A stretch of 64,000 bases of DNA from an uncultured Actinomycetota bacterium (GTDB lineage: Bacteria > Actinomycetota > Actinomycetes > JAFAQI01), in contig CAVYQE010000002.1 in the NCBI GenBank assembly GCA_963770565.1, positions 1 through 64,000 on the forward strand, written 5' to 3'. The notes beneath the pieces are model-generated. The model searched no databases, was not told where the DNA came from, and was given only the letters and a program-made list of their open reading frames with translations. The number at the start of each line of letters is the position of its first letter. Within the stretch, counting starts at the first letter, position 1. A program made the position numbers and the translations under genes. This document shows, piece by piece, positions 2,403-39,056 of this stretch.

Positions 2403-2406
2403 GCCG

Positions 2407-3018: not shown

Positions 3019-3031
3019 CGGACCGGCCTCG

Positions 3032-4084: not shown

Positions 4085-4097
4085 CAGCTGTTCCGCC

Positions 4098-5564: not shown

Positions 5565-5576
5565 GCCGCGCAGCGT

Positions 5577-5595
5577 ATCTGACGCCCCGTCAGGT
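5577..5595. promoter_or_regulatory. Palindromic operator ATCTGACG-CCC-CGTCAGGT
   Basis: Overlaps the edge of the -10 box of the ALDH gene; motif recurs across the cluster. Confidence 0.8.
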
Positions 5596-5626
5596 TTGCC
5601 CTGTCGTGGGCCCACCACCGGCGACG

Positions 5627-17745: not shown

Positions 17746-18231
17746 GTGCTCGTGGATGTCGACAGCAGGCTCGGCCGGTTCGTCGTCAAGGCGAGCGGCT
17801 CGAAGACCTTCATGCGGATCGGCCCCAAGGTCGTGCCACGCATCGACCGGATGCTGCACAAGGTGTCCGGCGGGCGGGTCCTGATGAGCGGCGGGATGCT
17901 TCCGTCGCTGATGTTGACGAGCACCGGCGCGAAGTCCGGGCTGCGTCGGACTACTCCGCTCGCGACAATGCCGGTCGACGGCTCGTGGTACGTCGTCGGC
18001 AGCAACTTCGGCCGCGACCACCATCCGGCGTGGACCGCCAACCTGCTCGCCGACCCGCAGGCAGAGGTGTCCTTCCAGGCCGCCGTGACCCCGGTCCGGG
18101 CGCACTTGCTCACCGCCGAGGAGAAGGCCGAAACCTGGCCGCAGCTGGCCGCGCTCTGGCCGAACTACGACCTCTACGTCGAGCGCAGCGGACGCGACCT
18201 GCGCGTGTTCCGGCTCGATCCGCGCGGCTGA
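17746..18231 (+). CDS. Deazaflavin (F420H2)-dependent nitroreductase family (Ddn/FDOR-A)
   Basis: LTSTGAKSGLRRTTPL, VVGSNFGRDHHPAWTANL, YVERSGRDLRVF. Confidence 0.88.
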   Translation: MLVDVDSRLGRFVVKASGSKTFMRIGPKVVPRIDRMLHKVSGGRVLMSGGMLPSLMLTSTGAKSGLRRTTPLATMPVDGSWYVVGSNFGRDHHPAWTANLLADPQAEVSFQAAVTPVRAHLLTAEEKAETWPQLAALWPNYDLYVERSGRDLRVFRLDPRG

Positions 18232-18234
18232 CGG

Positions 18235-19287
18235 ATGCAGGTTCTCCTCACCGGCGGCACCGGGTACGTCGGTTCCTACGTCGTGAAGGCACTGCTCGAG
18301 GCCGGTCACGCGCCGCGGCTGCTGGTCCGCAACCGCGACCGGCTGGCCGCGACCGTCGCTGCCATCGGCGTCGATGTCGACGCGCTTGCGATCACCGACG
18401 GCGACATGACCGACGCAGACGCAGTCCACGACGCGGTCGCCGGCATGGACGCGGTCATTCACGCCGCTGCGGTGGTCGCGGCGCTCAATCGCACCGACGC
18501 CGAGCGAACCGTCGACACCAACATCCGCGGCGCCGAGACCGTGATCGACGCGGCGGTCGCGGCCGGCTGCGACCCGGTCGTGCACGTGTCGAGCGTCGCC
18601 GCGGTCTACACCCCGACCGCGCCGCTGATCACCGCCGACCTCGCGCCGGCCGTCACCGCGACCAGCCCCTACATCCGCGCCAAGGCGAAGGCGGAGGAGC
18701 ACGCCCGCGCGCGGCAGGCCGACGGCGCTCCGGTCACGATCGTCTATCCCGGCGGCGTGAGCGGGCCCGCGGCCGGCGACGCGTTCGGCGACGTCGCCGA
18801 GGGATTCGTCTCGATGCTGACCAGCGGAGTGGTGCCCCTGCGCGGCGGCGGCTTCGGCATCATCGACGTCCGCGACCTTGCCGACGTACTCGTCGCGACC
18901 CTGACCCCGGGGATGGGCGCGCGACGGTTCGTCGCCGGCGGCGAGCTGCTCGACATGAACGGCGTCGCCGCGCTTCTTCGGATCGTGACCGGCCGCCGGA
19001 TGCCGGTGATCCCCACGCCGGGGGTGGTCTTCCGCGGAGTCGGGCGGGCGGCCGACCTGCTGCGCAAGGTGGTCTCGTTCGACACCGTCTACACCGCGGA
19101 GGCGATGGACCTGCTCACCCGGGCCCGACCGACCGACGATGCTGCCGTTCACGACCAACTCGGCATCAGATATCGCCCGCCGATCGAGACGGTCGAAGCG
19201 ATGGTTCAGGCGCTGTACGACGGCGGCCGGCTCACCGCCAAGCAGGTCGGGCGGCTCGGCCGCTCATCCGAACGGCTGCCGGCATGA
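18235..19287 (+). CDS. NAD-dependent epimerase/dehydratase (extended SDR)
   Basis: TGGTGYVG, HAAA, VSS, YIRAK. Confidence 0.85.
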   Translation: MQVLLTGGTGYVGSYVVKALLEAGHAPRLLVRNRDRLAATVAAIGVDVDALAITDGDMTDADAVHDAVAGMDAVIHAAAVVAALNRTDAERTVDTNIRGAETVIDAAVAAGCDPVVHVSSVAAVYTPTAPLITADLAPAVTATSPYIRAKAKAEEHARARQADGAPVTIVYPGGVSGPAAGDAFGDVAEGFVSMLTSGVVPLRGGGFGIIDVRDLADVLVATLTPGMGARRFVAGGELLDMNGVAALLRIVTGRRMPVIPTPGVVFRGVGRAADLLRKVVSFDTVYTAEAMDLLTRARPTDDAAVHDQLGIRYRPPIETVEAMVQALYDGGRLTAKQVGRLGRSSERLPA

Positions 19288-19297
19288 TGCTGCCGAC

Positions 19298-20227
19298 ATG
19301 CTGAGGGCGAGACTCGTCTCGCTGGCCGTCGGGGGGACGGTCGCGATGACGGGCGTCGCGACCGCCGCACCGACCTCGGCGCACTACGACTTCCATCGGG
19401 TCCAGGTCCGGCTCAAGTCCGGAAAGGTGCGGGCCGCGACCCAGATCGCGATGGTGACCACGTCCGGCGACACAGTCGGGGCGCTGGCCGGTCCCGGCCC
19501 GAACGTCAGCCGGGCGTTCATCCTCCGACCGGGTGGCGCCACGACCTGGCTGCGCGTCACTGGATTCGCCAACACCCTGATCGATGCGGCCTCCGAGGGT
19601 GGCACCGTCGTCATCACCGTCTACGGCGCGCACCGGGCCACCCGGGTCTACCTCCGCCATCCCAACGCGAAGCTGAAGCGGATCCGCGTCCCCGGCCTCG
19701 ACCCCGCGAGTGTCGTCGTCACCGGCGTCAACGACTCCGGCGACCTGGTCGGATCAGGCTTCACCAAGGGCGGTCAGTCGCGGTCGTTCCTCGAGCGGAG
19801 CGGCCACTACCGGATGTTCGCCGTACCGGTGAAGCGGGCGAGCATGACCTTCGCAGCCGGCATCAATGACGCCGGCGTCATCGTCGGCAGCTACACCGAC
19901 CGGCGCGGCGTCACCCACGGCTTCATCGACCAACACGGCAAGGTGCAGATCGTGCGGCTGCCCGGGGCCGGCACCCACGCCGGCCACGGCTCGGCGGTGC
20001 AGGCGATCTCCGACAGCGGCAGCTGGCTCGGCGTCGCCACCACCGACCGCGCGACGGTCATCGACTACGTGCACGGCACCGGTGGCGGCCTGGTCAAGCT
20101 GCGCTACCCGCAGCCGCACACGACCACGTACGTGACCGCGATCAACAGCCTAGGAGTGGTGGTCGGCACCTTCTACAGCGCTGGGACGAGGTCGTACCAC
20201 GCCTTCGTCGCGACCCCGGCCGCCTGA
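19298..20227 (+). CDS. Secreted protein with HAF-like extracellular repeats
   Basis: Signal-peptide-like N-terminus; repeats GVNDSGDLVG, GINDAGVIVG, AISDSGSWLG, AINSLGVVVG; THGF and YHAF motifs. Confidence 0.65.
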   Translation: MLRARLVSLAVGGTVAMTGVATAAPTSAHYDFHRVQVRLKSGKVRAATQIAMVTTSGDTVGALAGPGPNVSRAFILRPGGATTWLRVTGFANTLIDAASEGGTVVITVYGAHRATRVYLRHPNAKLKRIRVPGLDPASVVVTGVNDSGDLVGSGFTKGGQSRSFLERSGHYRMFAVPVKRASMTFAAGINDAGVIVGSYTDRRGVTHGFIDQHGKVQIVRLPGAGTHAGHGSAVQAISDSGSWLGVATTDRATVIDYVHGTGGGLVKLRYPQPHTTTYVTAINSLGVVVGTFYSAGTRSYHAFVATPAA

Positions 20228-20234
20228 CCCACCA

Positions 20235-20328
20235 CACGCATGGCCCATTGGTGGCGCTATAGCCCCACGCATGGCCCATCGGTGGCGCTATAGCCCCACG
20301 CATGGGCCATCGGTGGAGCGAGAGCCAC
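20235..20328. repeat. 31-bp tandem repeat, 3 units (CACGCATGGCCCATYGGTGGCGCTATAGCCC), REP-like
   Basis: Units start at 20235, 20266 and 20297; third unit degenerate; lies between convergent genes. Confidence 0.85.
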
Positions 20329-20337
20329 TAGGCCGTA

Positions 20338-20925
20338 TCAACGAGTCCAGCGAGCGAGCGCGGCGTCGACCACAGCGGCGAGCCGTCCTTCGGCGTACCG
20401 CTCGGGGTAGAGCAGGGCATGCACGCTCAACCCGTCGATGAGGCCGGCCAGAATCTCGGCGATCATGTCGGGGTCGTCATCGACGAGCTCGCCGGTCTGC
20501 TGCGCGCCGACGATCAGCCCGCGGAGCACCCCCCGCCAGTGGGCGGACTCGGCGCGCTGCACCGCCCGAAGGTCGTCGTTGACGAGTGCCCGGCTCCAGA
20601 AGCTGATCTCGAGGTGCGTCTCACGGGCCTGCTGGGCGTGCATCGGCACCTCGTCGTAGCAGAACGCGCGCAGCGCATCCAGGCCGCTCAGCGGCTCGAG
20701 CTCGCCACCCAGCCGCTTCGTGATGTTGGCGTGCGAGATCCGCAGCGCCTCGAGCAGGATGTCGTCCTTGCGCTCGTAGTAGTGCGACAGCACGCCTGAG
20801 GAGTAGCCGGCCTCCTTGGCGATCTCGCGCGTCGTCGCGCCGTCGATGCCGCTCTCCACGATCACCTTCCAGGCCGCCTCGGCGAGCTCGCGGCGACGCT
20901 GGTCGTGGTCAACGATCTTGGGCAT
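20338..20925 (-). CDS. TetR family regulator (BetI-type C-terminus)
   Basis: MPKIVDHDQRR...ATTREIAKEAGYSSGVLSHYYERKDDIL. Confidence 0.92.
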   Translation of the reverse strand: MPKIVDHDQRRRELAEAAWKVIVESGIDGATTREIAKEAGYSSGVLSHYYERKDDILLEALRISHANITKRLGGELEPLSGLDALRAFCYDEVPMHAQQARETHLEISFWSRALVNDDLRAVQRAESAHWRGVLRGLIVGAQQTGELVDDDPDMIAEILAGLIDGLSVHALLYPERYAEGRLAAVVDAALARWTR

Positions 20926-20958
20926 CTGGACTCTCCGATCCGATCGCCGCGTTCGTCG

Positions 20959-20988
20959 TTGTGTTGTATTCGGACGTCCGTCTATAGT
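20959..20988 (+). promoter_or_regulatory. Putative sigma70 promoter TTGTGT-N18-TATAGT with palindrome CGGACGTCCG (20971-20980) in the spacer
   Basis: Divergent TetR/operon intergenic region; candidate TetR operator. Confidence 0.55.
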
Positions 20989-21041
20989 GCCCACACTTAC
21001 CACGAACACGCGCCGTCGCGCGCGGACGAGGGAGGCTGATC

Positions 21042-21950
21042 ATGGCCACCGCAGTATGCAATGCGGGTCCGATCCCGGCGCGCGGAACGGCAGAGCGCGC
21101 GCAGCTCGTCGACCTGTTGCGGGTCAAGGCGAAACTGTCCCGCCGCGAGACGGTACGGCTGACCAGGATCGCCGGCGCCGGGCACTACACCAGCACCTTC
21201 TCGGCCGCCGAGCTGTTCGCTGCGATCTACTACGCGCGACTGCGCTACTCCCCCAGCGACCCAGACTGGCTCGACCGCGACCGCTTCGTCCTGAGCAAGG
21301 GGCACGCCGCGATCGGGCTGTATCCGCTGCTCGCCGACGTGGGCTTCTTCGACCCGATCGAGCTCGATGACTACACCCGGCTCGGCAGCATGTTCGGCGA
21401 CCATCCGGACATGCGCAAGATCCCGGGCATCGACTTCAGCTCGGGCTCGCTCGGCCACGGCCTCTCGATCGGCCTCGGCATGGCGCTTGCCGCCCGGATC
21501 AGCGGCCGGTCCTACCGGACGTACTGCATGCTCGGCGACGGCGAGCTGGGCGAGGGCCAGGTGTGGGAAGCCGTGATGGCGGCCGGACAGTTCCGGGTCG
21601 GCCGGCTGATCGCGATCATCGACCGCAACCAGCTCTCGATCGACGGCCCGACCGAGGAGCTGATGGGCGTCGAGCCGATCGAGGACAAGTTCGAGGCGTT
21701 CCGCTGGCGGGTCAATCGGATCGACGGTCACGACCTCGACGCGATCCTCGACGAATTCGCCGAGCTCGACGACAACCCCGACGCGCCGCCGCAGCTGATC
21801 GTCGCCGACACCGTCAAGGGTCGCGGCGTACGACGAATGGAGCTGGACAAGAACTGGCACGTCGGCAACCTGGTCGGCGAGGACTACGACGACGTGATGG
21901 CTGAGATCGACGGCGGCCTGCAGCCGCTCCTCGCGGAGGTGGGCAAGTGA
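21042..21950 (+). CDS. Split transketolase, N-terminal ThDP-binding subunit
   Basis: DRFVLSKGHA, GDHPD, GSLGHG, GDGELGEG...DRN, TVKGRG. Confidence 0.92.
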   Translation: MATAVCNAGPIPARGTAERAQLVDLLRVKAKLSRRETVRLTRIAGAGHYTSTFSAAELFAAIYYARLRYSPSDPDWLDRDRFVLSKGHAAIGLYPLLADVGFFDPIELDDYTRLGSMFGDHPDMRKIPGIDFSSGSLGHGLSIGLGMALAARISGRSYRTYCMLGDGELGEGQVWEAVMAAGQFRVGRLIAIIDRNQLSIDGPTEELMGVEPIEDKFEAFRWRVNRIDGHDLDAILDEFAELDDNPDAPPQLIVADTVKGRGVRRMELDKNWHVGNLVGEDYDDVMAEIDGGLQPLLAEVGK

Positions 21951-23005
21951 CCGAGACGACCCAAGGCGCGCGATCGTCGACCGACTCGCAGGAGATCAGC
22001 GAGGTCTTCCGCGGTAGCGCGGACGGATCCACCAAACTCAAGCCGAAGGGGACCGTCAAGGGCATCGAGGCCGCCTCGATCCCGGCCTTCGTGGCCGGCG
22101 AGGAGCTTGCCGACCTTGGCGACCACGACCGGCGGATCGTCGTACTCACCGCCGACCTGGCCGGCGCCAGTCGCACCTCGGACTTCCAGGCCCGCCATCC
22201 GAGCCGGTTCTTCAACCTGGGGATCGCGGAGCAGAACATGATGTCGGTCGCCGCCGGGCTGGCGTCGACCGGGCTCCGGCCGTACGTGAGCACGTTCGCG
22301 GCGTACGCCGGGTTGCTGTGCTGCGAGCAGATCCGCACCGACCTTGCCTACCCGGGGATGCCGGTCGGGATCCTGGCGCACCACTCCGGGATGAGCCTCG
22401 GCTACTACGGCACCAGCCACCACTCGCTCGAAGACCTCAGCGTTACCCGCGCGATCGCCGGGCTGACCGTGGTCAGCGTCGCCGATGCCAACCAGCTCCG
22501 GGCGATCCTGCGGGCGTCGCTGAGCCTGACCGAGCCGATCTACATCCGGCTCGGTCGCGGCCGCGATCCCGAGGTCTATCCCGAGGTGCCGGCCGACTAC
22601 GCCTTCGGGCGGGCGATCCGGCTCAGCGAGGGCAGCGACCTGACCTTGATCACGCACGGCGCCGAGGTGCGGCCGTGCCTCGACGCGGCCGAGGCACTCG
22701 GCCGGGACGGGATCGGGGTCCGGGTCGTCGACATGCACACGATCAGCGACATCGATGCGACCGAGGTCTTCGCCGCCGCGAAGGAGACCGGCGCGATCCT
22801 CACCGTCGAGGAGCACAACATCACCGGCGGGATGGGATCGGCGGTCGCCGAGACACTGCTCGAGGCCGGCGTGATGACCCGGTTCCTGCGAGCCGGTGTC
22901 CCTGACGAGCACGTACTGCTCGGCCCACCAGCCGGTTTGTACGCCCACTACGAGTTGGATGCCGCGGGCGTCGAGGCACGCGCCCGCCGGTTCCTGGCCG
23001 TCTGA
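21947..23005 (+). CDS. Split transketolase, C-terminal subunit
   Basis: GIAEQNM, EQIRTD, GTSHHSLED, YIRLGR, VEEH. Confidence 0.92.
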   Translation: MTETTQGARSSTDSQEISEVFRGSADGSTKLKPKGTVKGIEAASIPAFVAGEELADLGDHDRRIVVLTADLAGASRTSDFQARHPSRFFNLGIAEQNMMSVAAGLASTGLRPYVSTFAAYAGLLCCEQIRTDLAYPGMPVGILAHHSGMSLGYYGTSHHSLEDLSVTRAIAGLTVVSVADANQLRAILRASLSLTEPIYIRLGRGRDPEVYPEVPADYAFGRAIRLSEGSDLTLITHGAEVRPCLDAAEALGRDGIGVRVVDMHTISDIDATEVFAAAKETGAILTVEEHNITGGMGSAVAETLLEAGVMTRFLRAGVPDEHVLLGPPAGLYAHYELDAAGVEARARRFLAV

Positions 23006-23017
23006 AGGAGACCCGCC

Positions 23018-24274
23018 ATGACCGAGCTAGCCAGCCACCAGCGCACCCGTACCAACGACGGGAATCTCCGCACCCGCGCCAAGCGGGTCATCCCCAACGG
23101 CATGACCGGGCACATGAGCGTGGGTGCGCTGCCGACGGAATTCCCGCAGTTCTACGACTCGGGCGAGGGCGCCCGGGTCCGGGACGTCGACGGCAACAGC
23201 TACGTCGACATGATGTGCAGTTTCGGGCCGAACATCCTCGGCTACCGCCACCCGAAGGTCGAGGCGGCGGTCGCCGCCCAGCACGCCCGTGGCAACACGC
23301 TGTCCGGTCCGGGCGAGTGCATGGTCGAGCTGGCCGAGCTCCTCGTCGATCGAGTGGGGCACGCCGACTGGGCGATGTTCGCGAAGAACGGTACGGACGC
23401 GACCAGCCTCTGCCTGAGCATCGCCCGCGCCACCACCGGCCGCTCGGCGGTCGTGACCGGCGCCGGGGCGTACCACGGCTGGGCGGGGTGGAGCAATCTC
23501 AAGCCGGACGGCGTCACCGCCGAGGAGCGCTCGGTCGTGCACACCTATACCTACAACGACCTGTCGAGCGTCGAGCAGGCGATCGACGCGGCCGGTCCGG
23601 AGAACGTGGCCTGCGTGTTCATCTCGCCGTTCCGCCACGACGCCGGACACGACCAGGAGCTGGTGGAACCGGAGTTCGCGAAGGGTGTTCGAGCGCTGTG
23701 CGACGCGCATGGTGCGGCACTGGTGATGGACGAGGTGCGCACCGGCTTCCGGCTGCACCACGGCAGCTCGTGGGAGCCGCTGGGCGTCGAGCCGGACCTG
23801 AGCGCATGGAGCAAGGCGATCGCCAACGGCCAGCCGATCGCCGCGGCGCTGGGCACCGGCGCCTACCGTGACGGCGCGGAACGGATCTTCGCCACCGGCT
23901 CGTTCTGGTACCAGGCGGTGCCGATGGCCGCCGCGATCGCGACCATCCACGCGCTGCGCGACGAGGATGCGATCGGCGCGATGGTGAAGGCCGGCACGCA
24001 GTTCCGCCAGGGCATCGAGGCGCAGTCGCGCGACCACGGGATCGCGGTCAACCAGACCGGCCCGGTGCAGATGCCGAACCTCAGCTTCCCGGGAGATGCC
24101 AACTTCGCCAAGGCGTTCGCGTTCTGCGCGGCGGCGGTCGAGAACGGCACCCTCCTGCACCCGCGGCACAACTGGTTCCTGAGCTCGGCGCACACCGAGG
24201 CCGATATCGATCAGGCGCTGATGGCGACCGATGCCGGCTTCCGTGCAGTGCGCAGCCAGTTCGGCAGCGATTGA
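23018..24274 (+). CDS. Class III PLP aminotransferase, FumI (aminopentol aminotransferase)-like
   Basis: RVIPNGMTGH, LPTEFPQF, HADWAMFAKNGTDATS, PFRHD, DEVRTGFR, WSKAIANG, TGSFW, QTGPVQMP and HPRHNWFLS parallel the recalled Sphingopyxis FumI. Confidence 0.85.
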   Translation: MTELASHQRTRTNDGNLRTRAKRVIPNGMTGHMSVGALPTEFPQFYDSGEGARVRDVDGNSYVDMMCSFGPNILGYRHPKVEAAVAAQHARGNTLSGPGECMVELAELLVDRVGHADWAMFAKNGTDATSLCLSIARATTGRSAVVTGAGAYHGWAGWSNLKPDGVTAEERSVVHTYTYNDLSSVEQAIDAAGPENVACVFISPFRHDAGHDQELVEPEFAKGVRALCDAHGAALVMDEVRTGFRLHHGSSWEPLGVEPDLSAWSKAIANGQPIAAALGTGAYRDGAERIFATGSFWYQAVPMAAAIATIHALRDEDAIGAMVKAGTQFRQGIEAQSRDHGIAVNQTGPVQMPNLSFPGDANFAKAFAFCAAAVENGTLLHPRHNWFLSSAHTEADIDQALMATDAGFRAVRSQFGSD

Positions 24275-24275
24275 G

Positions 24276-25103
24276 ATGAGCGAGCGGTTGAAGGTGCTCG
24301 TCGTCACCGGCGGGCATCCGTTCGAGCTGGAGCCTTACCTCGAGATCTACGCGGCGAACGACGAGATCGACTGGACGCACGTCGAGCCACCCGAGGCGCG
24401 CGAGTGGTTCCACCCGGACCACGTCGGCGAGTGGGACGCGATCGTCTGCTACGACATGCAAGGCATCGAGTTCCGCAAGCCGGAGCCGCCGATCCTGCAC
24501 ACTCCCCCACCGGACTACGCCCATGGGCTCGCGGCAATGCTCGAGCGAGGGCAGGGCATCGTCTTCCTGCACCATGCGATGTCGGCCTGGCCGACCTGGC
24601 CGTTGTGGGCGGACATCGTCGGCGGTCGCTGGCACTACGTGCCCGGCGAGCTGCACGGCGAGCGCTACCCCGCCTCCGGCTACACCCGCGAGGTCAACCA
24701 CCACATCTCGGTGCTCGATCCCGGGCACCCGATCTGCGCCGGGGTCGGTGACGGCTTCGACATCGTCGACGAGATCTACCTCAACCCGGTGTTCGAGGAT
24801 CGCGTCGTACCGCTGCTTCGCACCGACTTCGAGATGACCCCGGAGAACTTCTACTCCGGCGAGCTGGCGATCCTGGGCAGCCTGTACGACCGGACCGGAT
24901 GGACCCACCCGCGCGGCAGTGGGCTGGTCGGCTGGGTCAAGACGGCCGGCAACAGCCCGATCGCCTACCTGCAGTCAGGGCACGGCCCTGCGGCGTACGC
25001 GAACACCTCGTTCCGAACCGTGCTGGCCAATGCGATTCGATGGGTGGCCTCGGACGACGCACACACATGGGCGCGCGGGCGCCCGACCGCTCTGGCGGTC
25101 TGA
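24276..25103 (+). CDS. ThuA-like (class I glutamine amidotransferase-like fold) protein
   Basis: VLVVTGGHPF, GIVFLHHA, HPICAG...DEIY, YLQSGH. Confidence 0.78.
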   Translation: MSERLKVLVVTGGHPFELEPYLEIYAANDEIDWTHVEPPEAREWFHPDHVGEWDAIVCYDMQGIEFRKPEPPILHTPPPDYAHGLAAMLERGQGIVFLHHAMSAWPTWPLWADIVGGRWHYVPGELHGERYPASGYTREVNHHISVLDPGHPICAGVGDGFDIVDEIYLNPVFEDRVVPLLRTDFEMTPENFYSGELAILGSLYDRTGWTHPRGSGLVGWVKTAGNSPIAYLQSGHGPAAYANTSFRTVLANAIRWVASDDAHTWARGRPTALAV

Positions 25104-25123
25104 CCGACCTGAGCAGGAGAAAC

Positions 25124-26071
25124 ATGGAGCTGCCGAGCTACGACGAGCTGCCCGAGGCACCGAAAGGGGGCCGATCGGGCTGGCATGTGTTCGGGGCCGA
25201 CGACCAGGTCGGTCTTATGAACCTGCAGACGCCTGACCGGGTGGCTGCCGCCGCCGCCGAGATCCAGCGCGGCGCGGTCTTCGCCCTGAGCGCCGAGGTC
25301 CGGATGTTCGACCCGCCGCTGTATGGCCGGGTGATGCCGAAGCACCGGCTGATCACCGTGGAGGGCGACACCGGCTTCGACGACGCGCTGGACGACTTCA
25401 ACCCGCAGTCGTCGAGCCAGTGGGACTCCCTCGCCCACGAGGGCTACGGCCGCGACACCTTCTACAACAACGCCACCCGCGACGACATCCTCGCGGGCCG
25501 GCGCAACTCGATCTCGCACTGGGCCAGGCGCGGAATCGTCGGCCGCGCAGTCGTGCTCGACGTGGCCGCGATGATGGGCGACGACTACGACCCGGGTAAG
25601 GCCCGGTCGATCTCGGTCGACGACCTGGAGCGTTGCCGGGCCACGGCCGGCGTTGACTACCGGCCCGGCGACGTGCTCATCCTCCACACCGGCTTCGCGG
25701 CCTGGTATCGCGAGCAGGACGCCGCGCGACGCGAGCTGATGGTCAGCGACAAGACGCTGACCGCGGTCGGCCTCGAGCATTCGGAGGCGATGGCGCGCTA
25801 CCTGTGGGACGCGCACGTATCCGCTGTGGTCGGCGACAACCCGGCGGTCGAGGTGTGGCCGCCGGACTTCAGCCGCGAATCGAGGCCATTCGGCTACATG
25901 CATCGGATCCTCATCGGGCAGTTCGGGATGGGGCTCGGCGAGCTGTGGTGGCTGGACGACCTGGCGCGGGACTGTCGCGAGGACGGCCGCTACACGGCGT
26001 TCTTCTCCAGCGCGCCGCTGCATGTCGAGGGCGGCGTCAGCTCGCCGCCGAACGCGGTGGCGATCAAGTGA
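25124..26071 (+). CDS. Cyclase family (kynurenine-formamidase-like) metal-dependent hydrolase
   Basis: QSSSQWDSLAH, GIVGRAVVLD, GDVLILHTG, GDNPAVE, GELWWLDDL, GGVSSPPNAVAIK. Confidence 0.85.
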   Translation: MELPSYDELPEAPKGGRSGWHVFGADDQVGLMNLQTPDRVAAAAAEIQRGAVFALSAEVRMFDPPLYGRVMPKHRLITVEGDTGFDDALDDFNPQSSSQWDSLAHEGYGRDTFYNNATRDDILAGRRNSISHWARRGIVGRAVVLDVAAMMGDDYDPGKARSISVDDLERCRATAGVDYRPGDVLILHTGFAAWYREQDAARRELMVSDKTLTAVGLEHSEAMARYLWDAHVSAVVGDNPAVEVWPPDFSRESRPFGYMHRILIGQFGMGLGELWWLDDLARDCREDGRYTAFFSSAPLHVEGGVSSPPNAVAIK

Positions 26072-26715
26072 GCGAGATCGACCGCGCGCGCCAGGACCTC
26101 ATCGACTACAGCGGCCGGTTGGTCACCGACGGGCTGTGCATGGGCACGTCCGGCAACATCAGCGTGCGGATCGGCGATCAGGTCTTCATCACCCCGAGCA
26201 GCATCCCGGCCGCCGACATGACGCCCGAGCTGATCGCGGAGACCGATCTCGACGGCCGGGTCGTGGCGGCGTCATCGCGACCCTCGACCGAGCTGCCGTT
26301 CCACACCGCGATCTACAACGGCACAGATGCCGGCGCCGTCGTGCACACGCACTCGATGTATGCGACCGCACTGTCGACGACGATCGACGAGCTGCCGGCG
26401 ATCCACTACATGATCAATCACGTCGGCGGTCCGGTGCGGGTCGTGCCCTACTGCACCTTCGGCACTGAGGAGCTCGCGCAACGAGTGCGGGCGGGCGTCA
26501 AGGACCGGTACGCGACGCTGATCCAGAACCACGGCACGGTGGCGTACGGCGCCACTCTCGCCGAGGCCTACTTCCGGGCCCAGTTATTGGAGTGGCTCTC
26601 CGAGCTGTATTGGCGCGCACTACAGGTCGGCACCCCGCGGATCCTGAGCGAGTCAGAGCTCGCCGAGGTGCGCGAGCAGAACAAGCGGCTGCGCTACGCC
26701 TGGAGCCAGCGATGA
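26068..26715 (+). CDS. Class II aldolase (L-fuculose-1-phosphate aldolase-like)
   Basis: GTSGNIS, ITPS, PSTELPFH, VVHTHS, NHG. Confidence 0.9.
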   Translation: MSEIDRARQDLIDYSGRLVTDGLCMGTSGNISVRIGDQVFITPSSIPAADMTPELIAETDLDGRVVAASSRPSTELPFHTAIYNGTDAGAVVHTHSMYATALSTTIDELPAIHYMINHVGGPVRVVPYCTFGTEELAQRVRAGVKDRYATLIQNHGTVAYGATLAEAYFRAQLLEWLSELYWRALQVGTPRILSESELAEVREQNKRLRYAWSQR

Positions 26716-27662
26716 CGCCGAAGGTGGTCTGTCTCGGTCCGATCATTCTCGATGTCCTGGGCCGGCCCTGCCTCGAGCTACCGCCCGGGCAGCTCGGCCA
26801 GCGGATCTCCCAGATCCGGCTCACCGTCGCCGGCACCGGCGCGGGCACCGCGATCGACCTGGCGAAGCTCGATACCTCGGTCACCCTGCTCGGCGCGATC
26901 GGCAATGACGACGCGGGCGACTTCTTGCTCACCGTCCTCGGCCATTTCGAAGTGGACGTCTCACTTGTCCAGCGAACCGACGCCGCGCAGAGCTCGGCCT
27001 CGATGCTGCCGATCCGGCCGAACGGCGACCGCGGCGCCTACCACGTGGTGGGCGCAAACGCGCATCTCGCGCTCACTCCTGAGCTGCTCGCCACCGCGCT
27101 CGACGGTGCGTCGCACATCCATGTCGGCGGCGCCGAGTCGATGGGCGACTACATCCTCGAGGACTTTGCGATGACCCTGCGGACCGCCCGCGCGGCCGGC
27201 GTCACCACCAGCGTCGACGTACTCGCGTCCGGCTACGAAGACCACCAGCGCAAGGCCTTCCGCGACGCGATGCCGTTCGTCGACTACTTCCTGCCGAACG
27301 ACCAGCAGATCTGCGCGATCTATGACGTCGAGGACGTGGAAACCGCGGCGACGGCCGCCCTGCGGGACGGGGTCGGCGCGGTCGTGGTCGCGTGCGGGCC
27401 GGACGGTGCACTCCTGGCCCGCGGCGACGAGCGGGTCCGCGTGCCGGCGCTCGCGATCGAGGTGGTGGACACGACCGGCTGCGGCGACGCACTGAGCGCT
27501 GGCTTCATCCGAGCCAAGCTGATGGGCTGGGACGACGTCGAGGCGGCCCGGCTCGGCTGCACCGCCGGCAGTCTGGTCGCGACCGGGCTCGGCTCGGACG
27601 CCGGTCTGGTCGACCTCGCGTCGACGATCGAGCGCAGCCGCGAGCTCGCCTCCACCACCTAG
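26712..27662 (+). CDS. PfkB/ribokinase-family kinase
   Basis: AGTGAGTA, GAIGNDDAG, PN, DTTGCGD. Confidence 0.9.
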   Translation: MTPKVVCLGPIILDVLGRPCLELPPGQLGQRISQIRLTVAGTGAGTAIDLAKLDTSVTLLGAIGNDDAGDFLLTVLGHFEVDVSLVQRTDAAQSSASMLPIRPNGDRGAYHVVGANAHLALTPELLATALDGASHIHVGGAESMGDYILEDFAMTLRTARAAGVTTSVDVLASGYEDHQRKAFRDAMPFVDYFLPNDQQICAIYDVEDVETAATAALRDGVGAVVVACGPDGALLARGDERVRVPALAIEVVDTTGCGDALSAGFIRAKLMGWDDVEAARLGCTAGSLVATGLGSDAGLVDLASTIERSRELASTT

Positions 27663-27671
27663 CCTGTCGGC

Positions 27672-28283
27672 GTGACCGAACCGAGTCGCTGGGCGGCCGC
27701 GAACCGTACGACGGACGCCAAGGGATACGCCGCGCATTTCGCCGAGCTCGAATCGAGCGGGGTCGACATCCACGGCGAGGCGACTCTCGTGGCCTCGCTC
27801 GTCCCGCCCGGGACGCACGTGCTCGACGCCGGCTGCGGCACCGGGCGGGTCGCGATCCGCCTCGCCGAGCTCGGCTACCTCTGTGTCGGCGTCGACAACG
27901 ACGTGGCCATGCTCGGCGTGGCGCGGGCGGCTTCCGAGCAGGTGACCTGGCTGCTCGCGGACCTGCTCGACGTCGACCGGCTCGCCGAATCCTTCGACCT
28001 CGTGATCGCGGCCGGTAACGTCATCCCGTTGCTCGCGCCGGGCACCGAACCAACTGTGATCTCCGGGCTCGCGAATCGACTCGCGCCGGACGGTCTCCTG
28101 CTGGCCGGCTTCGGGCTCGACGCCGCCCACCTGCCGATCGCGGCCGCGCCGTTCGGTCTCGCCGAGTACGACGAGTGGTGCGCAGCCGCAGGACTCGACC
28201 TAGTCGACCGGTTCTCGACCTGGGACCGGGCGCCGTACGACAGCGGCCCCTACGCCGTGAACCTCCACCGCCGCCTGACCTGA
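27672..28283 (+). CDS. Class I SAM-dependent methyltransferase
   Basis: VLDAGCGTGR, GVD, AGNV. Confidence 0.88.
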   Translation: MTEPSRWAAANRTTDAKGYAAHFAELESSGVDIHGEATLVASLVPPGTHVLDAGCGTGRVAIRLAELGYLCVGVDNDVAMLGVARAASEQVTWLLADLLDVDRLAESFDLVIAAGNVIPLLAPGTEPTVISGLANRLAPDGLLLAGFGLDAAHLPIAAAPFGLAEYDEWCAAAGLDLVDRFSTWDRAPYDSGPYAVNLHRRLT

Positions 28284-28320
28284 TCACCAACGAGGCGGTC
28301 CACGTGCGAGGCTCGACACC

Positions 28321-28695
28321 ATGGATGCCCGCGACATACTCGGCCGCCTCGCAGAGGCGACGTCCCGTGGCGACCTCGCTGCAATCGACGCGCTGGGGAG
28401 CAACGAGCGACTGAACGAATCCTTTCGGCGATTGACGACGGCCTTTCCGGACGTCCACGTAGAGCTCGAGTGGACCGTCGAAGAGGGCTTACGGGTGGTG
28501 GGCTGGGCCCACATCACCGGGACCCACGGCGGAGTCTGGCGTGACCTGCAGCCAACGCATCGGACTATCGACGTGCACGGGATGATCGCACTCGAAGTCA
28601 CCAACGATGGAACGGTCCACGACTTCTGGCTCGTCAATGACTGGCTGGGAATCGCGACCCAGCTCGGCGTCCGTCTCGAACTGCCCGCTGACTGA
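28321..28695 (+). CDS. SnoaL-like/ester cyclase family protein
   Basis: AFPDVHV...GTHGG...PTHRTI...DWLG pattern. Confidence 0.75.
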   Translation: MDARDILGRLAEATSRGDLAAIDALGSNERLNESFRRLTTAFPDVHVELEWTVEEGLRVVGWAHITGTHGGVWRDLQPTHRTIDVHGMIALEVTNDGTVHDFWLVNDWLGIATQLGVRLELPAD

Positions 28696-28732
28696 CGAAC
28701 GGCAAGTCCTGAGCGGGGCCTGACGTCCGGTG

Positions 28733-29266
28733 TCAGCTCGGCGCGCGCCCGGTGTAGGCGAGCAGGCGCTGCTGCGGGGTTGAGTCGCCGTCAAGCGGAA
28801 TCTCGGGCTTGAACACGCCCTTGCGCTGCTCGTCCGTGAACCGGCCGTGGATCACGCCGTACGCGGCTTCGGCCAGGCCGTCGGGCATGGTGTCGTCCTG
28901 ACCGGTAGAGCGGGCGACATCCCACCCGTGCAGGAGCTGATCGGCGAAGGCGATGCCCAGTGCAGGGCCGGTCTTATCGATGACGCCGTCCTGACCGAAG
29001 ACCTCAAGAACCTGCAACCGCGTGCTCTTGAAGTCCCCCACCGGATCGTCGCTGAGCAAGTCCGGGGGATGAGGGCTCGGCAGCGAAGCGTCCTTGCCGA
29101 GCGCAGCATTGATGAAGTACTGCTGCGTCTCCAACATGTGGTTGAGCAGGTCACGCAGCTGCCACTCGTCACACGTCGTCGCCGTGTCGAGGTCGGCCGC
29201 GCCCGCGACCTTGCCGGCCGTCCAGTCGCTCGCCTGGCCGTACAGAATCAGCAGATCGGCATCCAT
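28733..29266 (-). CDS. TIGR03086 / MDMPI (DinB-like) metal-binding protein
   Basis: TTCDEWQLRDLLNH, LLHGWDVA, RLLAYTGR; GAGGAG RBS. Confidence 0.82.
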   Translation of the reverse strand: MDADLLILYGQASDWTAGKVAGAADLDTATTCDEWQLRDLLNHMLETQQYFINAALGKDASLPSPHPPDLLSDDPVGDFKSTRLQVLEVFGQDGVIDKTGPALGIAFADQLLHGWDVARSTGQDDTMPDGLAEAAYGVIHGRFTDEQRKGVFKPEIPLDGDSTPQQRLLAYTGRAPS

Positions 29267-29428
29267 GATGTCTCCTCTCACACCTGCTATACCCATCCGA
29301 GCACCAGTCTGTACCGCCCGCTAGTCCCAAGGGAGCCATCGATGGGTGCCCTCCGCAGGCATCCGTAGCGGACCGGCGTTAGCGTGGCGTCCACTGAGCG
29401 CCACGGACCGGACGGGGGGCCAGGTCGA

Positions 29429-30136
29429 ATGCTGAAGAAGCTGGTCGTGCCGGCGTCGCTGATCTGCCTCCTCATGGCTGGATGCGATACCGCTGGGTCG
29501 ACCGGCTTGCAGGCCAACGAGCCGCAGAGTCCGGGATCCCCATCGCCGGCAAGCTCGAGTCCGACCGTCGCGCCGACTCCCACAGCGACTCGCTCCGTCT
29601 ACCACCCGTTGGCGTGGGTGCAAACAAACGAGGCGGTATGCGTGTCGCTCATCAGAAGCAGCGACCCCGGGCGCGCGGTACGACTACTGACGAGCGGCGA
29701 CCTTCTCCCGCTGGCCGGGCCGGCAAACGCGGAGAACTGGATCGACACCGGCAGCTATGACCGCTACTGGATCGCAGTCGGTCGAGTGGGTAAGTGGACC
29801 TTCCTCTGGGAAGACAACGGATACGACGGCTCGCTACCGCGCATTGCCCGACGACTGTCGGTCGGCACGGTCTTCGCCTCGTTCTACTGGAACGTCAACT
29901 CGGACGAACAGTTCACCTACGCCTCCCACGGTCGGATCGTGCGGTCCTTCGACCCAATCCTCGACAAACGGAACGGCGGCGTCGGCGCCCCGCTCCCGGC
30001 CGAGGCGGGCCTGCATTGGAAGAGCGCGCCGGAGGTGTCCATGGTGCGGCTGCAGTCGTTGATCACGAGGCGACCGCTGGCGAATCCGGACTGGCTAAGG
30101 CGGCAGGGCGTGACCTTCTGGGGCTCACACCTGTAG
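29429..30136 (+). CDS. Lipoprotein, DUF6461-like
   Basis: Lipobox LMAGC, Ser/Pro/Thr linker, YWNVN...FTYASHG...FDP. Confidence 0.65.
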   Translation: MLKKLVVPASLICLLMAGCDTAGSTGLQANEPQSPGSPSPASSSPTVAPTPTATRSVYHPLAWVQTNEAVCVSLIRSSDPGRAVRLLTSGDLLPLAGPANAENWIDTGSYDRYWIAVGRVGKWTFLWEDNGYDGSLPRIARRLSVGTVFASFYWNVNSDEQFTYASHGRIVRSFDPILDKRNGGVGAPLPAEAGLHWKSAPEVSMVRLQSLITRRPLANPDWLRRQGVTFWGSHL

Positions 30137-36166: not shown

Positions 36167-36989
36167 CCAGGTCGCGGGTGAGCCGGCTCCCACCAACGAC
36201 ATCGTCGAGCGGCTCCGGGCGGCGGGCTGCGTGTTTGCCGAGGACGAGGCCCGGCTGCTCGTCGCGAACGCCGGTTCGCCGGCCGAGCTCGCCGACCTTG
36301 TCGACCGGCGGGTTGCCGGCTTCCCGCTCGAGCACGTCCTCGGCTGGGCCGAGTTCTGCGGGCGGCGGATCGCGGTCGCGCCCGGCGTTTTCGTTCCTCG
36401 GCGGCGGACCGAGCTGCTCGTCCGTACCGCGATCGAGGCTGCGACCCGAATCCGGCGACGACCGCCGAACGCGAACGCACCACTGCGGATCGTCGACCTG
36501 TGCTGCGGTTCCGGAGCGATCGGCGCGGTCCTCGCGGACGCCCTCGATCCGGTCGAGCTCTACGCCGCCGACGTCGATCCTGCGGCGGCGCGGTGCGCCC
36601 GCCGCAACCTCGAAGGGATCGGCACGGTCGTCGAAGGCGACTTGTTCGAGCCGCTACCCGACCACCTGCTGGGTGCCGTCGATCTGCTCGTCGTCAACGC
36701 GCCGTACGTGCCGACCGGTGAGATCGAGCTGATGCCCCCCGAGGCCCGGTTGCACGAAGCCAGGGTGGCGCTCGACGGCGGCGGCGACGGCCTCGACGTC
36801 CACCGTCGGGTCGCCGGTGCGGCGTCGGACTGGCTGCGGCCGGGCGGCGAGCTTCTGATCGAGACGAGTGAACGCCAGGCGCCGGCCGCCCTCGAGCTGC
36901 TCGCCAGCAGCGGGCTGGCTGCCCGAGCGGTGTCGGACGACGCGCTGGCGGCGACCGTCGTGATCGGGGTCAGACCCGAGCTCGCCTAG
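36147..36989 (+). CDS. Putative protein N5-glutamine methyltransferase (HemK/PrmC-like)
   Basis: RLRAAGCVFAEDEA, FVPRRRTE, DLCCGSG, NAPY, DGGGDGL. Confidence 0.85.
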   Translation: MPLPWTDQVAGEPAPTNDIVERLRAAGCVFAEDEARLLVANAGSPAELADLVDRRVAGFPLEHVLGWAEFCGRRIAVAPGVFVPRRRTELLVRTAIEAATRIRRRPPNANAPLRIVDLCCGSGAIGAVLADALDPVELYAADVDPAAARCARRNLEGIGTVVEGDLFEPLPDHLLGAVDLLVVNAPYVPTGEIELMPPEARLHEARVALDGGGDGLDVHRRVAGAASDWLRPGGELLIETSERQAPAALELLASSGLAARAVSDDALAATVVIGVRPELA

Positions 36990-38353
36990 CGGGCGACTGC
37001 AGCCTCAAAGGCGTCGAGCTCGGCCAGCAGATGGTCGGCCATTGTCCGAAGGTCGGGCATGAACTCCCGGCAGGACTGGACCCCGATCGAGAAGTTGTCC
37101 TGGTAGCTCCACGCGGTGAGGTTCAGGCCGAGCACCCGGCTCAACGGGCCCATCGACCGGACCGCGACCACCGGCGCACCGGCGAGAGCAAGCGGCGGCG
37201 GGCCTTTCACGTTGGATACCACGGCATTGAACAGTGGCCGTTTGGCCACCTTCTCGACCACGGCGAGCGTCTTCAGCGTGACCTTGCCGAAGAGCAGGTA
37301 GTAGTCCTGCCACACCGCGAAGAGCTCGATATCGCCCTTCGCCCACTCACGCGCCGCGTCAAGGCTGGCCTTCACCGCCGCCAGCCGTTCGATCGGATCG
37401 GCGATGTCGGTGCCCAACGCGACGTACCAGTACGACGTGCGATTGCCGAAGTCGTCGATCTCGGACGGTTGGCGGATCGACACCGGGTGCGCGACGTTGA
37501 GGCACTTGTCCGGCGTCTCGCCGTGGGCTTCGAGATAGCGCCGGATCGCGCCGCCGCAGACCGTCACGAACAGCTCGTTCACGGTGACGCCGGCCGCGGA
37601 CTTCAGCGCCTGGATCCGCGCGAACGGCACGGTGACGTCGACGTAGATCCGGTCCGCAAGAGGAAGCCGGTTGAACCGGGTGGACGGACCGGACATCGGG
37701 TTGACGACCGGCACCCCGGCGGCCTTGCGAGCGCGGTTCTCCCGAGCCGAGCGGACCGATCGCCGGACCACCGCGGGCAGCTGCCGGTAGAGCCGCGCGT
37801 GCGAGCGCATCGCGAATCCGACCAGCGCAGACCGCGACGGCGCCGGCTCGGGCCGGTCGGGCACCGGCGGGAACGACAGGTCAGCGCCACTGTCGAAGGC
37901 AAGCTCGAAGAACCGGACGCTGGCCTGCCCGTCCATGATCGAGTGGTGGATCTTGAAGACCAGCGCGACCTGGTCGTCGGGCAAGCCCTCGACGATGGTC
38001 AGCTCCCAGAGCGGCCGGTCGCGGGCCAGCTGCACACTGGCGATCCGCGACACCAGTTCGTCGAACTCCTCGTCGCTTCCCGACTCGAGTCGCTCGACGA
38101 ACAAGTGCCGGCCGACGTCGAAGGCCCCGGCATCGAGGAAGACCGGGCGGCCGAGTCCGTACGGGATCTTGACCACGGTCCAGCGCATGGCCGGGATCTG
38201 CGGCAACCGCTCGCGGGCCCACGCTTTGATCTCCTCGACCGCGACCGGCCCGTCCGGCCGGGCGCCGACGATGGCCAGCTTGATCGTGTGCATGTGCTCG
38301 CCGGCCGATTCCTCCAGCACATGGAGCGCGTCGACGCCGCTGAGTTGGCGCAT
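36986..38353 (-). CDS. Wax ester synthase/diacylglycerol acyltransferase (WS/DGAT)
   Basis: MRQLSGVDA, RDRPLWE, catalytic HHSIMDG, SNVKGP, LNLTAWSY. Confidence 0.9.
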   Translation of the reverse strand: MRQLSGVDALHVLEESAGEHMHTIKLAIVGARPDGPVAVEEIKAWARERLPQIPAMRWTVVKIPYGLGRPVFLDAGAFDVGRHLFVERLESGSDEEFDELVSRIASVQLARDRPLWELTIVEGLPDDQVALVFKIHHSIMDGQASVRFFELAFDSGADLSFPPVPDRPEPAPSRSALVGFAMRSHARLYRQLPAVVRRSVRSARENRARKAAGVPVVNPMSGPSTRFNRLPLADRIYVDVTVPFARIQALKSAAGVTVNELFVTVCGGAIRRYLEAHGETPDKCLNVAHPVSIRQPSEIDDFGNRTSYWYVALGTDIADPIERLAAVKASLDAAREWAKGDIELFAVWQDYYLLFGKVTLKTLAVVEKVAKRPLFNAVVSNVKGPPPLALAGAPVVAVRSMGPLSRVLGLNLTAWSYQDNFSIGVQSCREFMPDLRTMADHLLAELDAFEAAVAR

Positions 38354-38981: not shown

Positions 38982-39056
38982 TTGCCCGGCGAGCGACACC
39001 ACCGTCAATCCCCGTTGCTTCGCCGCTCGAAGGCCGGCATCGGCGATGATGGCGTC

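Follow-up and report, generated by a model that had tools for sequence, protein, structure and literature searches.

We analysed a 64,000-nt stretch of DNA (hereafter the window; C2:1-64000 of the 11-contig, 4.43-Mb genome of an uncultured Actinomycetota bacterium; G+C ~70%) and concentrated on a TetR-family regulator gene and the operon that diverges from it, in which a split transketolase and an aminotransferase (AT) are encoded together with an aldolase and a kinase. A preliminary description of this DNA had reported the regulator as divergent from seven tightly coupled genes, and Pfam placed all eight genes in the families that it named (TetR_N plus TetR_C_6, Transketolase_N, Transket_pyr plus Transketolase_C, Aminotran_3, ThuA, Cyclase, Aldolase_II, and PfkB). 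The genes lie where they had been drawn; the boundaries given were those of the longest open reading frames (ORFs), and several starts were revised by start-codon inspection. The TetR gene, with a BetI-type C-terminal domain, occupies 20338-20927 on the reverse strand (TetR_N, 44.9 bits; TetR_C_6, 72.6 bits); its longest ORF extends to 21009, and its likely start is the ATG at 20927. On the forward strand follow the N-terminal, thiamine diphosphate (ThDP)/PP-domain subunit of a split transketolase (TK-N; 21042-21950; Transketolase_N, 153 bits), the C-terminal subunit with its Pyr and C domains (TK-C; 21947-23005), a class III AT resembling glutamate-1-semialdehyde (GSA) aminomutases (23018-24274; Aminotran_3, 132.8 bits), a ThuA-domain protein (24276-25103; ThuA, 69 bits), a cyclase-family (PF04199) protein (25124-26071; 48 bits), a FucA-type class II dihydroxyacetone phosphate (DHAP) aldolase (26068-26715; Aldolase_II, 164 bits), and a PfkB-family kinase (26712-27662; 143 bits against a cut-off of 25.8), which probably acts on hydroxymethyl ketones (ketose-1 kinase). 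For the last four genes these are the likely starts from start-codon inspection. Three junctions (TK-N/TK-C, cyclase/aldolase, and aldolase/kinase) are 4-base overlaps, and the AT/ThuA, TK-C/AT, and ThuA/cyclase gaps measure 1, 12, and 20 nt, respectively. The earlier remark that the operon lacks a sugar transporter holds in a broader form, as there is no transporter gene of any kind in the window's operon.

A search with the AT protein returned 6784 proteins at E < 0.001 among 8000 scored candidates, and a scan of species-representative genomes gave 446 confirmed relatives. The best 80 of these, each with up to 10 kb per side, form the set of loci (L) to which the window's proteins were compared by tblastn. 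Nearly all are from soil metagenome-assembled Actinomycetota; Trebonia kvetii (L086) and a clade of Acidobacteriota complete the set. The preliminary description had suggested looking for co-occurrence across genomes, and the neighbourhood proved to be conserved: 65/80 loci carry a transketolase or an aldolase/kinase module, and in 55/80 a TetR homologue is divergent from the operon. A split transketolase is encoded in 23 loci (alone in 16, with aldolase and kinase in 4, with kinase in 2, and with aldolase in 1), whilst aldolase and/or kinase without transketolase are found in 42 (both in 33, kinase only in 6, aldolase only in 3). The remaining 15 have neither module, and include L031, which starts at the AT gene.

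The genes recur in four orders, which we call A to D. Order A reads TetR<>TKN-TKC-AT-SBP(family 5)-ThuA-ABC permeases/ATPases-cyclase, where SBP is a solute-binding protein, and order B reads TetR<>aldolase-PfkB-AT-APC permease. Order C has TetR<>TKN-TKC-AT beside a cluster encoding a short-chain dehydrogenase/reductase (SDR), an aldehyde dehydrogenase (ALDH), a glutamine amidotransferase (GATase), GntR, a glutamine synthetase (GS)-like protein, and a MenC-like protein, and order D combines everything, as in the window. The operon arrangement is not a product of chance, because dozens of other genomes repeat the gene set, its order, and the operator described below. A quick maximum-likelihood tree of the AT (81 rows, with L002 as outgroup and with L031, L063, and L083 dropped because they aligned over ≤330 residues) contained a transketolase-linked clade of 26 rows, 23 of them with transketolase (SH-aLRT 95), and an aldolase/kinase-linked clade of 39 rows (SH-aLRT 96), consisting of 38 such rows and L077, where kinase and transketolase occur together. 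The window's AT sits in the transketolase clade, and its operon has the aldolase and kinase in addition. Genome G001 carries both an A-type locus (L011) and a B-type locus (L109; G001:C16:127000-146000), the latter with its own TetR, operator, aldolase, kinase, and an AT that is 57% identical; the two modules are therefore no simple replacements of each other. AT homologues from the Acidobacteriota (L033-L037, L043, and L082; 50-51% identity) form a clade of their own and adjoin genes for a sulfatase, DUF2911, a sodium:solute symporter, and DUF1501, without transketolase, aldolase, kinase, or TetR.

The 114-bp gap between the TetR and TK-N genes contains an operator-like imperfect palindrome, TATTCGGACGTCCGTCTAT, at 20967-20985, with the core GGACGTCC at 20972-20979. 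It was found by eye and by script, the inverted-repeat tool having reported nothing in this gap, and it falls within the region (20959-20988) that had been suggested for electrophoretic mobility shift assays. When the 15-mer TCGGACGTCCGTCTA was searched with ≤2 mismatches in the 1.38 Mb of the 80 loci, 48 matches were obtained. Of these, 47 fall into the gap that separates TetR from the first operon gene, and without exception they share the orientation of the operon; both A-type (transketolase) and B-type (aldolase) loci have the 15-mer. C-type loci lack the 15-mer at this threshold; L024 and L029 have variants with the same GGACGTCCG core. The single match in the window is by itself not significant (23 of 100 shuffles reach it), and what gives the motif weight is that other genomes repeat it at the same position. 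Within the 4.43-Mb genome no other site is perfect, and near-matches do not exceed a reversed-pattern control; no second convincing site was seen there, and hence no separate transporter was found by it. The regulator itself scores 74 bits against the NCBIfam BetI model (cut-off, 201), with which it has only the TetR_C_6 domain type in common, and it would leave the predicted operator on binding the substrate or its ketone. Rfam gave no match at 19000-29500 with E up to 0.1, and a promoter/terminator scan gave nothing useful. The stretch occurs in soil metagenome sequencing runs; no RNA runs carrying it are listed, which says nothing on expression.

The TK-N motifs GH, RDRFVLSKGH, GDHPD, GDGE, and DRN align with those of the canonical transketolase of the same genome, and the best PDB match of TK-C is the C-chain of a split transketolase (6yaj; E 4e-66). 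We regard the split enzyme as accessory because a separate canonical full-length tkt is encoded elsewhere in the genome. In the alignment to the canonical enzyme, the ThDP/Mg motifs and the catalytic histidines, which we take to be the equivalents of E. coli H26, H66, H100, H261, and H473, are kept, as are the equivalents of H461 and R520 in TK-C. The canonical WTHDSIGLGEDGPTHQ is replaced by LAHHSGMSLGYYGTSHH, such that GEDGPTHQ becomes G[YF]YGTSHH in 22/22 AT-linked TK-C homologues that cover the motif (GYYGTSHH in the window). Numbered according to the E. coli library table of PMC3657141 (G467, D469, G470, and T472), the split enzymes have Tyr at the Asp469 position and Tyr or Phe at the Glu468 position. 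No Arg of TK-C aligns with the canonical ATRK motif, and the equivalent of the phosphate-binding Arg358 is thus absent. The same G[YF]YGTSHH signature is found in L112 of G116, a complete genome of the same class, again with an AT adjacent. A sample of 400 other genomes from the phylum included 59 in which a split transketolase was matched at E < 1e-60, and among the 29 loci compared, only that of G116 has the signature; in the other 28 the motif is GEDGATHQ, GNGGTTHH, or another variant, and no AT is linked. Six of the sampled split transketolases (L113-L118) read GNGGTTHH (five loci) or GDGGPTHH (one) at this motif, which points to further unexplored specificities among split transketolases. 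Elsewhere in the window's genome (G000:C1:176301-177314), Transketolase_N matches extend over several frames, one of them interrupted by TGA and TAG; either a transketolase-like gene is broken or frameshifted here, or the assembly is in error.

What the altered motif may mean can be gauged from work on other transketolases. In the part of PMC3657141 that describes it, the E. coli D469Y variant had an 8-fold higher specific activity on propanal and a selectivity reversed to 68% enantiomeric excess (R); it favoured the non-hydroxylated aldehyde and produced (3R)-1,3-dihydroxypentan-2-one. Passages of PMC13663882 present the Asp469 position as an established hotspot for specificity and stereoselectivity, report the highest pentanal conversion among split enzymes for a natural one with Leu at that position, and assign to His100 the separation of hydroxymethyl-ketone donors from the methyl-ketone chemistry of DXS. 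By analogy, the donor end of the window's enzyme would accommodate the usual HOCH2-CO- group, whilst the aldehyde half would probably be neither alpha-hydroxylated nor a typical sugar phosphate, and the altered pocket would be a poor fit for the usual sugar-phosphate acceptors. The kept donor site, the Tyr for Asp469, the Tyr/Phe for Glu468, and the missing ATRK Arg are in keeping with the suggestion already made that this is no ordinary sugar-phosphate transketolase, and the motifs fit an enzyme that cleaves HOCH2-CO-CH(OH)-R and releases a non-sugar aldehyde.

These observations bear directly on one alternative, in which the operon would encode a pathway for an amino-sugar or sugar phosphate and the transketolase step would be conventional, like the cleavage of apulose-4-phosphate by AptAB; the kinase would then make a sugar phosphate, and the AT would act on an amino-sugar or its phosphate. 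PfkB, FucA-like, and ThuA families usually belong to carbohydrate pathways, locus L023 has a sugar-type ABC transporter, and the equivalents of His461 and Arg520 are kept. Even so, we think such a pathway quite unlikely: the replacement of Asp469 and Glu468 in all 22 linked enzymes covering the motif, together with the missing ATRK Arg, speaks against an AptAB-like sugar-phosphate enzyme; the Pfam families of the operon genes include no isomerase, deaminase, or phosphatase, nor any apiose-pathway gene; and the nearest characterised relative of the AT acts on an acyclic amino-alcohol.

That relative is FumI. The AT's best PDB match is 6hbs, "aminopentol aminotransferase" (E 4.2e-129, 434 bits, query residues 12-417, one short gap), and the next-best chains are GSA aminomutases at E 1.8e-44. 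The label "FumI-like" is correct, because 6hbs is by far the best solved relative. FumI converts hydrolysed fumonisin B1 (2-amino-12,16-dimethylicosane-3,5,10,14,15-pentol) to the 2-ketone with pyruvate, and, in the portion of PMC2933618 that describes the reaction, the substrate is a 1-deoxy 2-amino-3-ol with a methyl group as C1; FumI's own product is therefore no transketolase donor. We considered whether the operon might instead handle a FumI-type 1-deoxy substrate, CH3-CH(NH2)-CH(OH)-R (a fumonisin or AAL backbone, a 1-deoxysphingoid, or a norephedrine-like compound), whose acyloin, CH3-CO-CH(OH)-R, would be split by the transketolase acting as an acyloin lyase. This would be exactly the documented chemistry of FumI (PMC2933618, in part), and some wild-type split transketolases take pyruvate as donor (PMC13663882, in part). 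Nevertheless, the His100 equivalent in GDHPD is kept, where DXS, the methyl-ketone enzyme, usually has Phe or Tyr according to PMC13663882; the kinase and the DHAP aldolase need a C1 hydroxyl; and the operon has no FumD-like carboxylesterase. We consider a 1-deoxy substrate very unlikely.

The aldolase matches E. coli FucA (1fua; E 2.4e-37), with its pstE, HtH, ihY, nHG, and GTsGN stretches aligned to FucA pssE, HnH, ihY, hHG, and GTaGN; these we take to hold, in turn, the catalytic Glu, the His-x-His pair, the Tyr, the third His of the Zn triad, and the phosphate loop. It scores below the NCBIfam FucA cut-offs, and its best NCBIfam match is ribulose-1-phosphate aldolase. The best NCBIfam match of the kinase is the IolC N-domain (103 bits, below the cut-off; no equivalog cut-off was reached), and its best PDB match is YdjH (3h49; E 4.6e-19). 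Both IolC and YdjH phosphorylate a CH2OH group adjacent to a ketone and are followed by an aldolase that releases DHAP. Such an aldolase cleaves the C3-C4 bond, and the carbon that leaves as the aldehyde must bear a hydroxyl; the kinase/aldolase branch therefore needs a 1,3,4-triol. The two enzymes cannot act on a sphinganine-type ketodiol, a point that the preliminary description had overlooked; a phytosphingosine-type ketone or an amino-deoxy-alditol could be processed.

The two other enzyme-like proteins are well conserved within their groups, and in the loci comparison both travel with the transketolase branch. ThuA-like genes are present in 17/80 loci (16 with transketolase, plus L031) and cyclase-like genes in 15/80. 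The ThuA-like protein has no sequence match in the PDB, its Atlas clusters are annotated only as "ThuA domain", and there is no Gfo/Idh/MocA gene of the ThuB type in the operon or the annotated loci. The only PDB match of the cyclase-family protein is 5ibz, an "uncharacterized protein" (E 1e-35). At the place where we would expect the metal motif of kynurenine formamidase, which we take to be HxGTHxDxPxH, it reads SSQWDSLAH; it has other conserved His, Asp, and Glu residues. The N-deacylation step for which this protein had been proposed is thus unsupported, as it has no characterised relative and the assumed formamidase motif was not found.

From the families, motifs, conservation, operator, and transketolase signature given above, we infer the reactions, the substrate class, and the direction of flow. 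The reading that we favour, to which we would give a little less than an even chance, is that the operon serves the catabolism of a 2-amino-1,3-diol or 2-amino-1,3,4-triol, probably water-soluble, with two alternative modules for C-C cleavage. The substrate would enter by an importer, which accompanies the AT in most relatives and is lacking from the window's operon. The AT would move the C2 amino group to a keto acid and leave a 1,3-dihydroxy-2-ketone. In branch A, the split transketolase would cut C2-C3 in a ThDP-dependent reaction, releasing a non-alpha-hydroxylated R-CHO from a pocket in which the donor site is intact and Tyr/Tyr replaces Glu/Asp at the aldehyde end. In branch B, the PfkB kinase would phosphorylate the C1 hydroxymethyl group, and the FucA-type aldolase would cut C3-C4 of C4-hydroxylated congeners to give DHAP and an aldehyde. 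Both modules would thus set up cleavage beside a hydroxymethyl ketone. The aldehyde would be disposed of by ALDH together with SDR or an alcohol dehydrogenase (ADH), as accompany the C-type loci and the G116 locus. Of the reversed transketolase-transaminase chemistry put forward in the preliminary description, the aminotransferase, the neighbourhood, and the transketolase motifs fit, whereas the lipid link, the lipid substrate, and N-deacylation were not borne out.

The direction and the kind of substrate are best judged from the genes that accompany the AT. An APC permease gene, nearest to the amino-acid/choline transporter (ACT) group and to urea-carboxylase-associated permeases, directly follows the AT in 35/80 loci, and a family-5 SBP with an Opp-type ABC system does so in 10/80. 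This makes an importer directly after the AT in 45/80, and most of the importers are under the same operator. In G116 (L157; G116:C6:391000-410999), the operon TKN-TKC(GFYG)-AT-Zn-ADH stands opposite genes for an Lrp/AsnC regulator, a lactaldehyde-dehydrogenase-like ALDH, and an amino-acid permease, without TetR and without the operator; its Zn-ADH resembles NDMA-dependent and mycothiol-formaldehyde dehydrogenases, and Mce4-like genes lie nearby. Because importer genes follow the AT and ADH/ALDH accompany the G116 locus, uptake and aldehyde disposal are indicated, and with them a catabolic role. A biosynthetic role was rejected, as the importers and the repressor argue for catabolism. In the window's genome the best APC homologue (40% identity) belongs to a gamma-glutamyl amine cluster on another contig and lacks the operator, and the best family-5 SBP homologue has 29% identity. 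In L023 (Baekduia sp.), a long ORF after the AT (2022-5186) has a PfkB-like part and a C-terminal domain like the beta subunit of N,N-dimethylformamidase, and may be two genes merged by the ORF caller; it is followed by the aldolase, a cyclase-like gene, and the sugar-type ABC transporter, and a LysR regulator replaces TetR. The window's ThuA-like protein has no similarity to this dimethylformamidase-like ORF.

The substrate is most likely small and water-soluble, because the APC permeases, the family-5 SBPs, the sugar-type ABC system of L023, and the amino-acid permease of G116 are all importers of polar solutes, and because the lipid genes that flank the window's operon recur, among the 80 loci, in L009 only. 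We accordingly rank a small or medium-sized water-soluble aminodiol or aminotriol above a membrane lipid, the head-group chemistry being the best-supported part. Other candidates were rejected: alaninol and hydroxyacetone have no C3 hydroxyl for either cleavage, and with serinol alone the kinase would already give DHAP, which leaves the 33 aldolase-bearing loci unexplained.

The preliminary description had preferred a long-chain sphingoid base (sphinganine, sphingosine, or phytosphingosine, possibly from ceramide), whose fatty aldehyde would feed the flanking beta-oxidation genes independently of sphingosine-1-phosphate (S1P) lyase. The flanking genes are indeed present in the window (acyl-CoA dehydrogenases and an acyl-CoA ligase at 13.6-17.7 kb, an ALDH at 4098-6056, and a WS/DGAT gene at 36986-38353), albeit 3 to 16 kb distant rather than around the operon. 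Among the 80 loci, however, these flanks recur only in L009, which is near-identical to the window (83-97% identical proteins), so that the proposed link to the lipid genes is not supported; and the APC permeases and family-5 SBPs directly after the AT, under the same operator, together with the sugar-type ABC system of L023, argue against a lipid substrate. The characterised PfkB kinases that we know of have small polar substrates, the operon yielded no ceramidase, and the deacylase role of the cyclase-family protein is the unsupported one discussed above. Canonical transketolases prefer (3S) donors and FucA-type aldolases (3R) donors. Natural sphingoid bases give (3R) ketones by Cahn-Ingold-Prelog (CIP) reasoning: 2-keto-sphinganine would be (3R), and 2-keto-phytosphingosine (3R,4R), which is the FucA configuration. 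The stereochemical fit at C3, a point on which the earlier proposal had been cautious, is compatible, since E. coli D469Y, with Tyr for Asp469, prefers non-hydroxylated aliphatic aldehydes and gives a (3R) product (PMC3657141, in part). Both this configuration and the Tyr-lined aldehyde pocket suit sphingoid head groups well. The transketolase could then take dihydroxy bases and the aldolase trihydroxy bases, and an operon without a transporter is what one would expect for a membrane-permeant lipid. FumI, the AT's close relative, acts on a sphinganine analogue (PMC3136697 and PMC2933618, each in part), and bacterial sphingoid-base catabolism is described as still unresolved in the section of PMC11893366 concerned with it. 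On balance we consider a sphingoid substrate unlikely. A fuller form of the idea, in which the AT-linked split transketolases are a natural subfamily diverted from sugar phosphates to (3R)-selective cleavage of non-sugar 1,3-dihydroxy-2-ketones and would form, with the FumI-like AT and FucA/PfkB, an S1P-lyase-free sphingoid-type route, seems to us similarly improbable; such a route could take sphinganine via the transketolase, and phytosphingosine via the aldolase to DHAP and pentadecanal.

Seven loci (L024, L027-L030, L032, and L044) have a conserved cluster ~2-8 kb upstream of the AT, comprising genes for an APC permease, a MenC-like member of the enolase superfamily, a GS-like ligase resembling gamma-glutamylputrescine synthetase, GntR, a class II GATase-like hydrolase, a betaine-aldehyde-dehydrogenase-like ALDH, and an SDR; L030 is without transketolase, and the other six have it. 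The cluster resembles a gamma-glutamylation pathway that would act on an amine or amino-alcohol. A counterpart is present in the window's genome on another contig, at G000:C11:113000-131000 (L110), with an ALDH of 75% and a GS-like protein of 65% identity. TetR and AT stand beside the cluster in all seven loci, which raises the question of whether the operon might serve a terminal amine, with, for example, ethanolamine converted to glycolaldehyde and the transketolase and aldolase working in the condensing direction to assimilate the aldehyde. The BetI-type TetR, a permease of the amino-acid/choline type, and the aldolase's best NCBIfam match, ribulose-1-phosphate aldolase (making glycolaldehyde and DHAP), would suit this. 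It is hard, however, to place a kinase in a condensing route; the canonical Asp would suit glycolaldehyde, which is alpha-hydroxylated; and FumI acts on a secondary amine (PMC2933618, in part). We judge a terminal-amine substrate to be quite improbable.

Several points weigh against the aminodiol or aminotriol reading that we favour. The ThuA-like and cyclase-family proteins have no step in the scheme, and we know of no abundant natural small 2-amino-1,3-diol. Six of the 80 loci have the kinase without aldolase or transketolase in the stretch. In the genomes of four of these (L050, L052, L058, and L086), where the locus holds only kinase, AT, and permease, FucA-like genes with 41-51% identity are found elsewhere with no visible link, and none of these genomes has a Tyr-type transketolase; the aldolase may be dispensable, or supplied in trans, in kinase-only loci. 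As G001 has both locus types and the AT clades are separate, the two modules may serve different substrates. The kept equivalents of His461 and Arg520 may allow an anionic substrate (a phosphate or carboxylate). With the opposite C3 preferences of canonical transketolases and FucA-type aldolases, a common substrate for the two depends on the Tyr acting as it does in D469Y. Finally, the substrate of FumI itself is without a C1 hydroxyl (PMC2933618, in part).

Among the neighbouring genes, a class I S-adenosylmethionine methyltransferase gene (27672-28283, forward strand; Methyltransf_25) begins 9 nt after PfkB and is a possible eighth gene of the operon; among the 80 loci it is conserved in L009 only. 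Directly upstream of TetR, at 17746-20227, the window has three genes in common with L009 only: a deazaflavin-dependent nitroreductase-family gene (17746-18231), an HpnA-like NAD-dependent epimerase/dehydratase gene (18235-19287), and a 362-aa ORF without a family match (19139-20227). Further downstream, 40473-45077 holds a flavin amine oxidase gene and, after it, a tandem pair of methyltransferase genes of the CMAS type (mycolic acid cyclopropane synthase family); an MFS gene (38982-40397) lies just upstream of the oxidase gene.

No description of this gene combination, of the regulon, or of the Tyr-bearing transketolase subfamily was found in the literature searched, which covered the FumI cluster and structure, ThuA and 3-keto sugars, serinol catabolism, split transketolases with aminotransferases, and bacterial sphingoid degradation, with few subscription journals included. 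Each of the enzymes comes from a known family, and the operon is an assembly of such families in which the transketolase is distinctive. Should the scheme hold, bacteria would have a new way of degrading vicinal amino-alcohols, in which transamination precedes C-C cleavage next to the ketone so formed. The FumI family would also gain a physiological role outside mycotoxin degradation, and biocatalysis a natural transketolase lineage with the very exchange by which engineers had converted aliphatic aldehydes to (3R) products. For finding the substrate, the shared operator and TetR offer a ready biosensor handle, and the cultured carrier Trebonia kvetii (L086), whose locus comprises TetR, PfkB, AT, and an APC permease, makes the question testable.

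Among the known systems closest to the operon are the synthetic transketolase-transaminase cascades, which make 2-amino-1,3-diols such as 2-amino-1,3,4-butanetriol by the same two reaction types and through the same intermediates; the window's operon would be their natural counterpart, degradative in direction and controlled by a repressor. With the S1P-lyase route and with Pseudomonas sphBCD there may be an overlap in substrate class, should the substrate be a sphingoid base after all. However, there is no S1P lyase-type step here, and SphC and SphB of Pseudomonas, a periplasmic oxidase and a cytochrome c in the passage of PMC11893366 that deals with them, are unrelated proteins. FumI of Sphingopyxis sp. 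MTA144 (6hbs/6hbv) has the class III fold in common with the window's AT, with a 434-bit match over 406 residues and an aligned Lys within a ...W(S/G)K... stretch, and the two probably also have in common a pyruvate-type transamination of an amino group beside a carbinol. Whereas the fumonisin cluster has carboxylesterase and tricarballylate genes (PMC3136697, in part), there are none among the operon genes or their neighbours, and the genes that accompany the window's AT family are those for TetR, for transketolase or aldolase/kinase, and for solute importers.

The FucK/FucA, YdjH/YdjI, and IolC/IolJ pairs likewise consist of a PfkB or sugar kinase followed by a DHAP-releasing aldolase, and the catalytic stretches of FucA are conserved in the window's aldolase. 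Here, however, the ketone would come from transamination and not from an isomerase or dehydratase, and the window's kinase scores far below every NCBIfam cut-off. With the split transketolase of Carboxydothermus hydrogenoformans (6yaj) and the wild-type split transketolases evaluated as biocatalysts (PMC13663882, in part), the window's enzyme has the two-subunit architecture and the kept ThDP and donor-site motifs in common. It reads GYYGTSHH where 6yaj reads GEDGASHQ in the printed alignment, its genome also encodes a canonical tkt, to which it would be accessory, and its genes are linked to that of an AT. With E. coli D469Y it has the Tyr at the Asp469 position in common, engineered there and natural here, and the window's type adds Tyr/Phe at position 468, His at positions 462 and 474, and the lack of an Arg at the ATRK motif.

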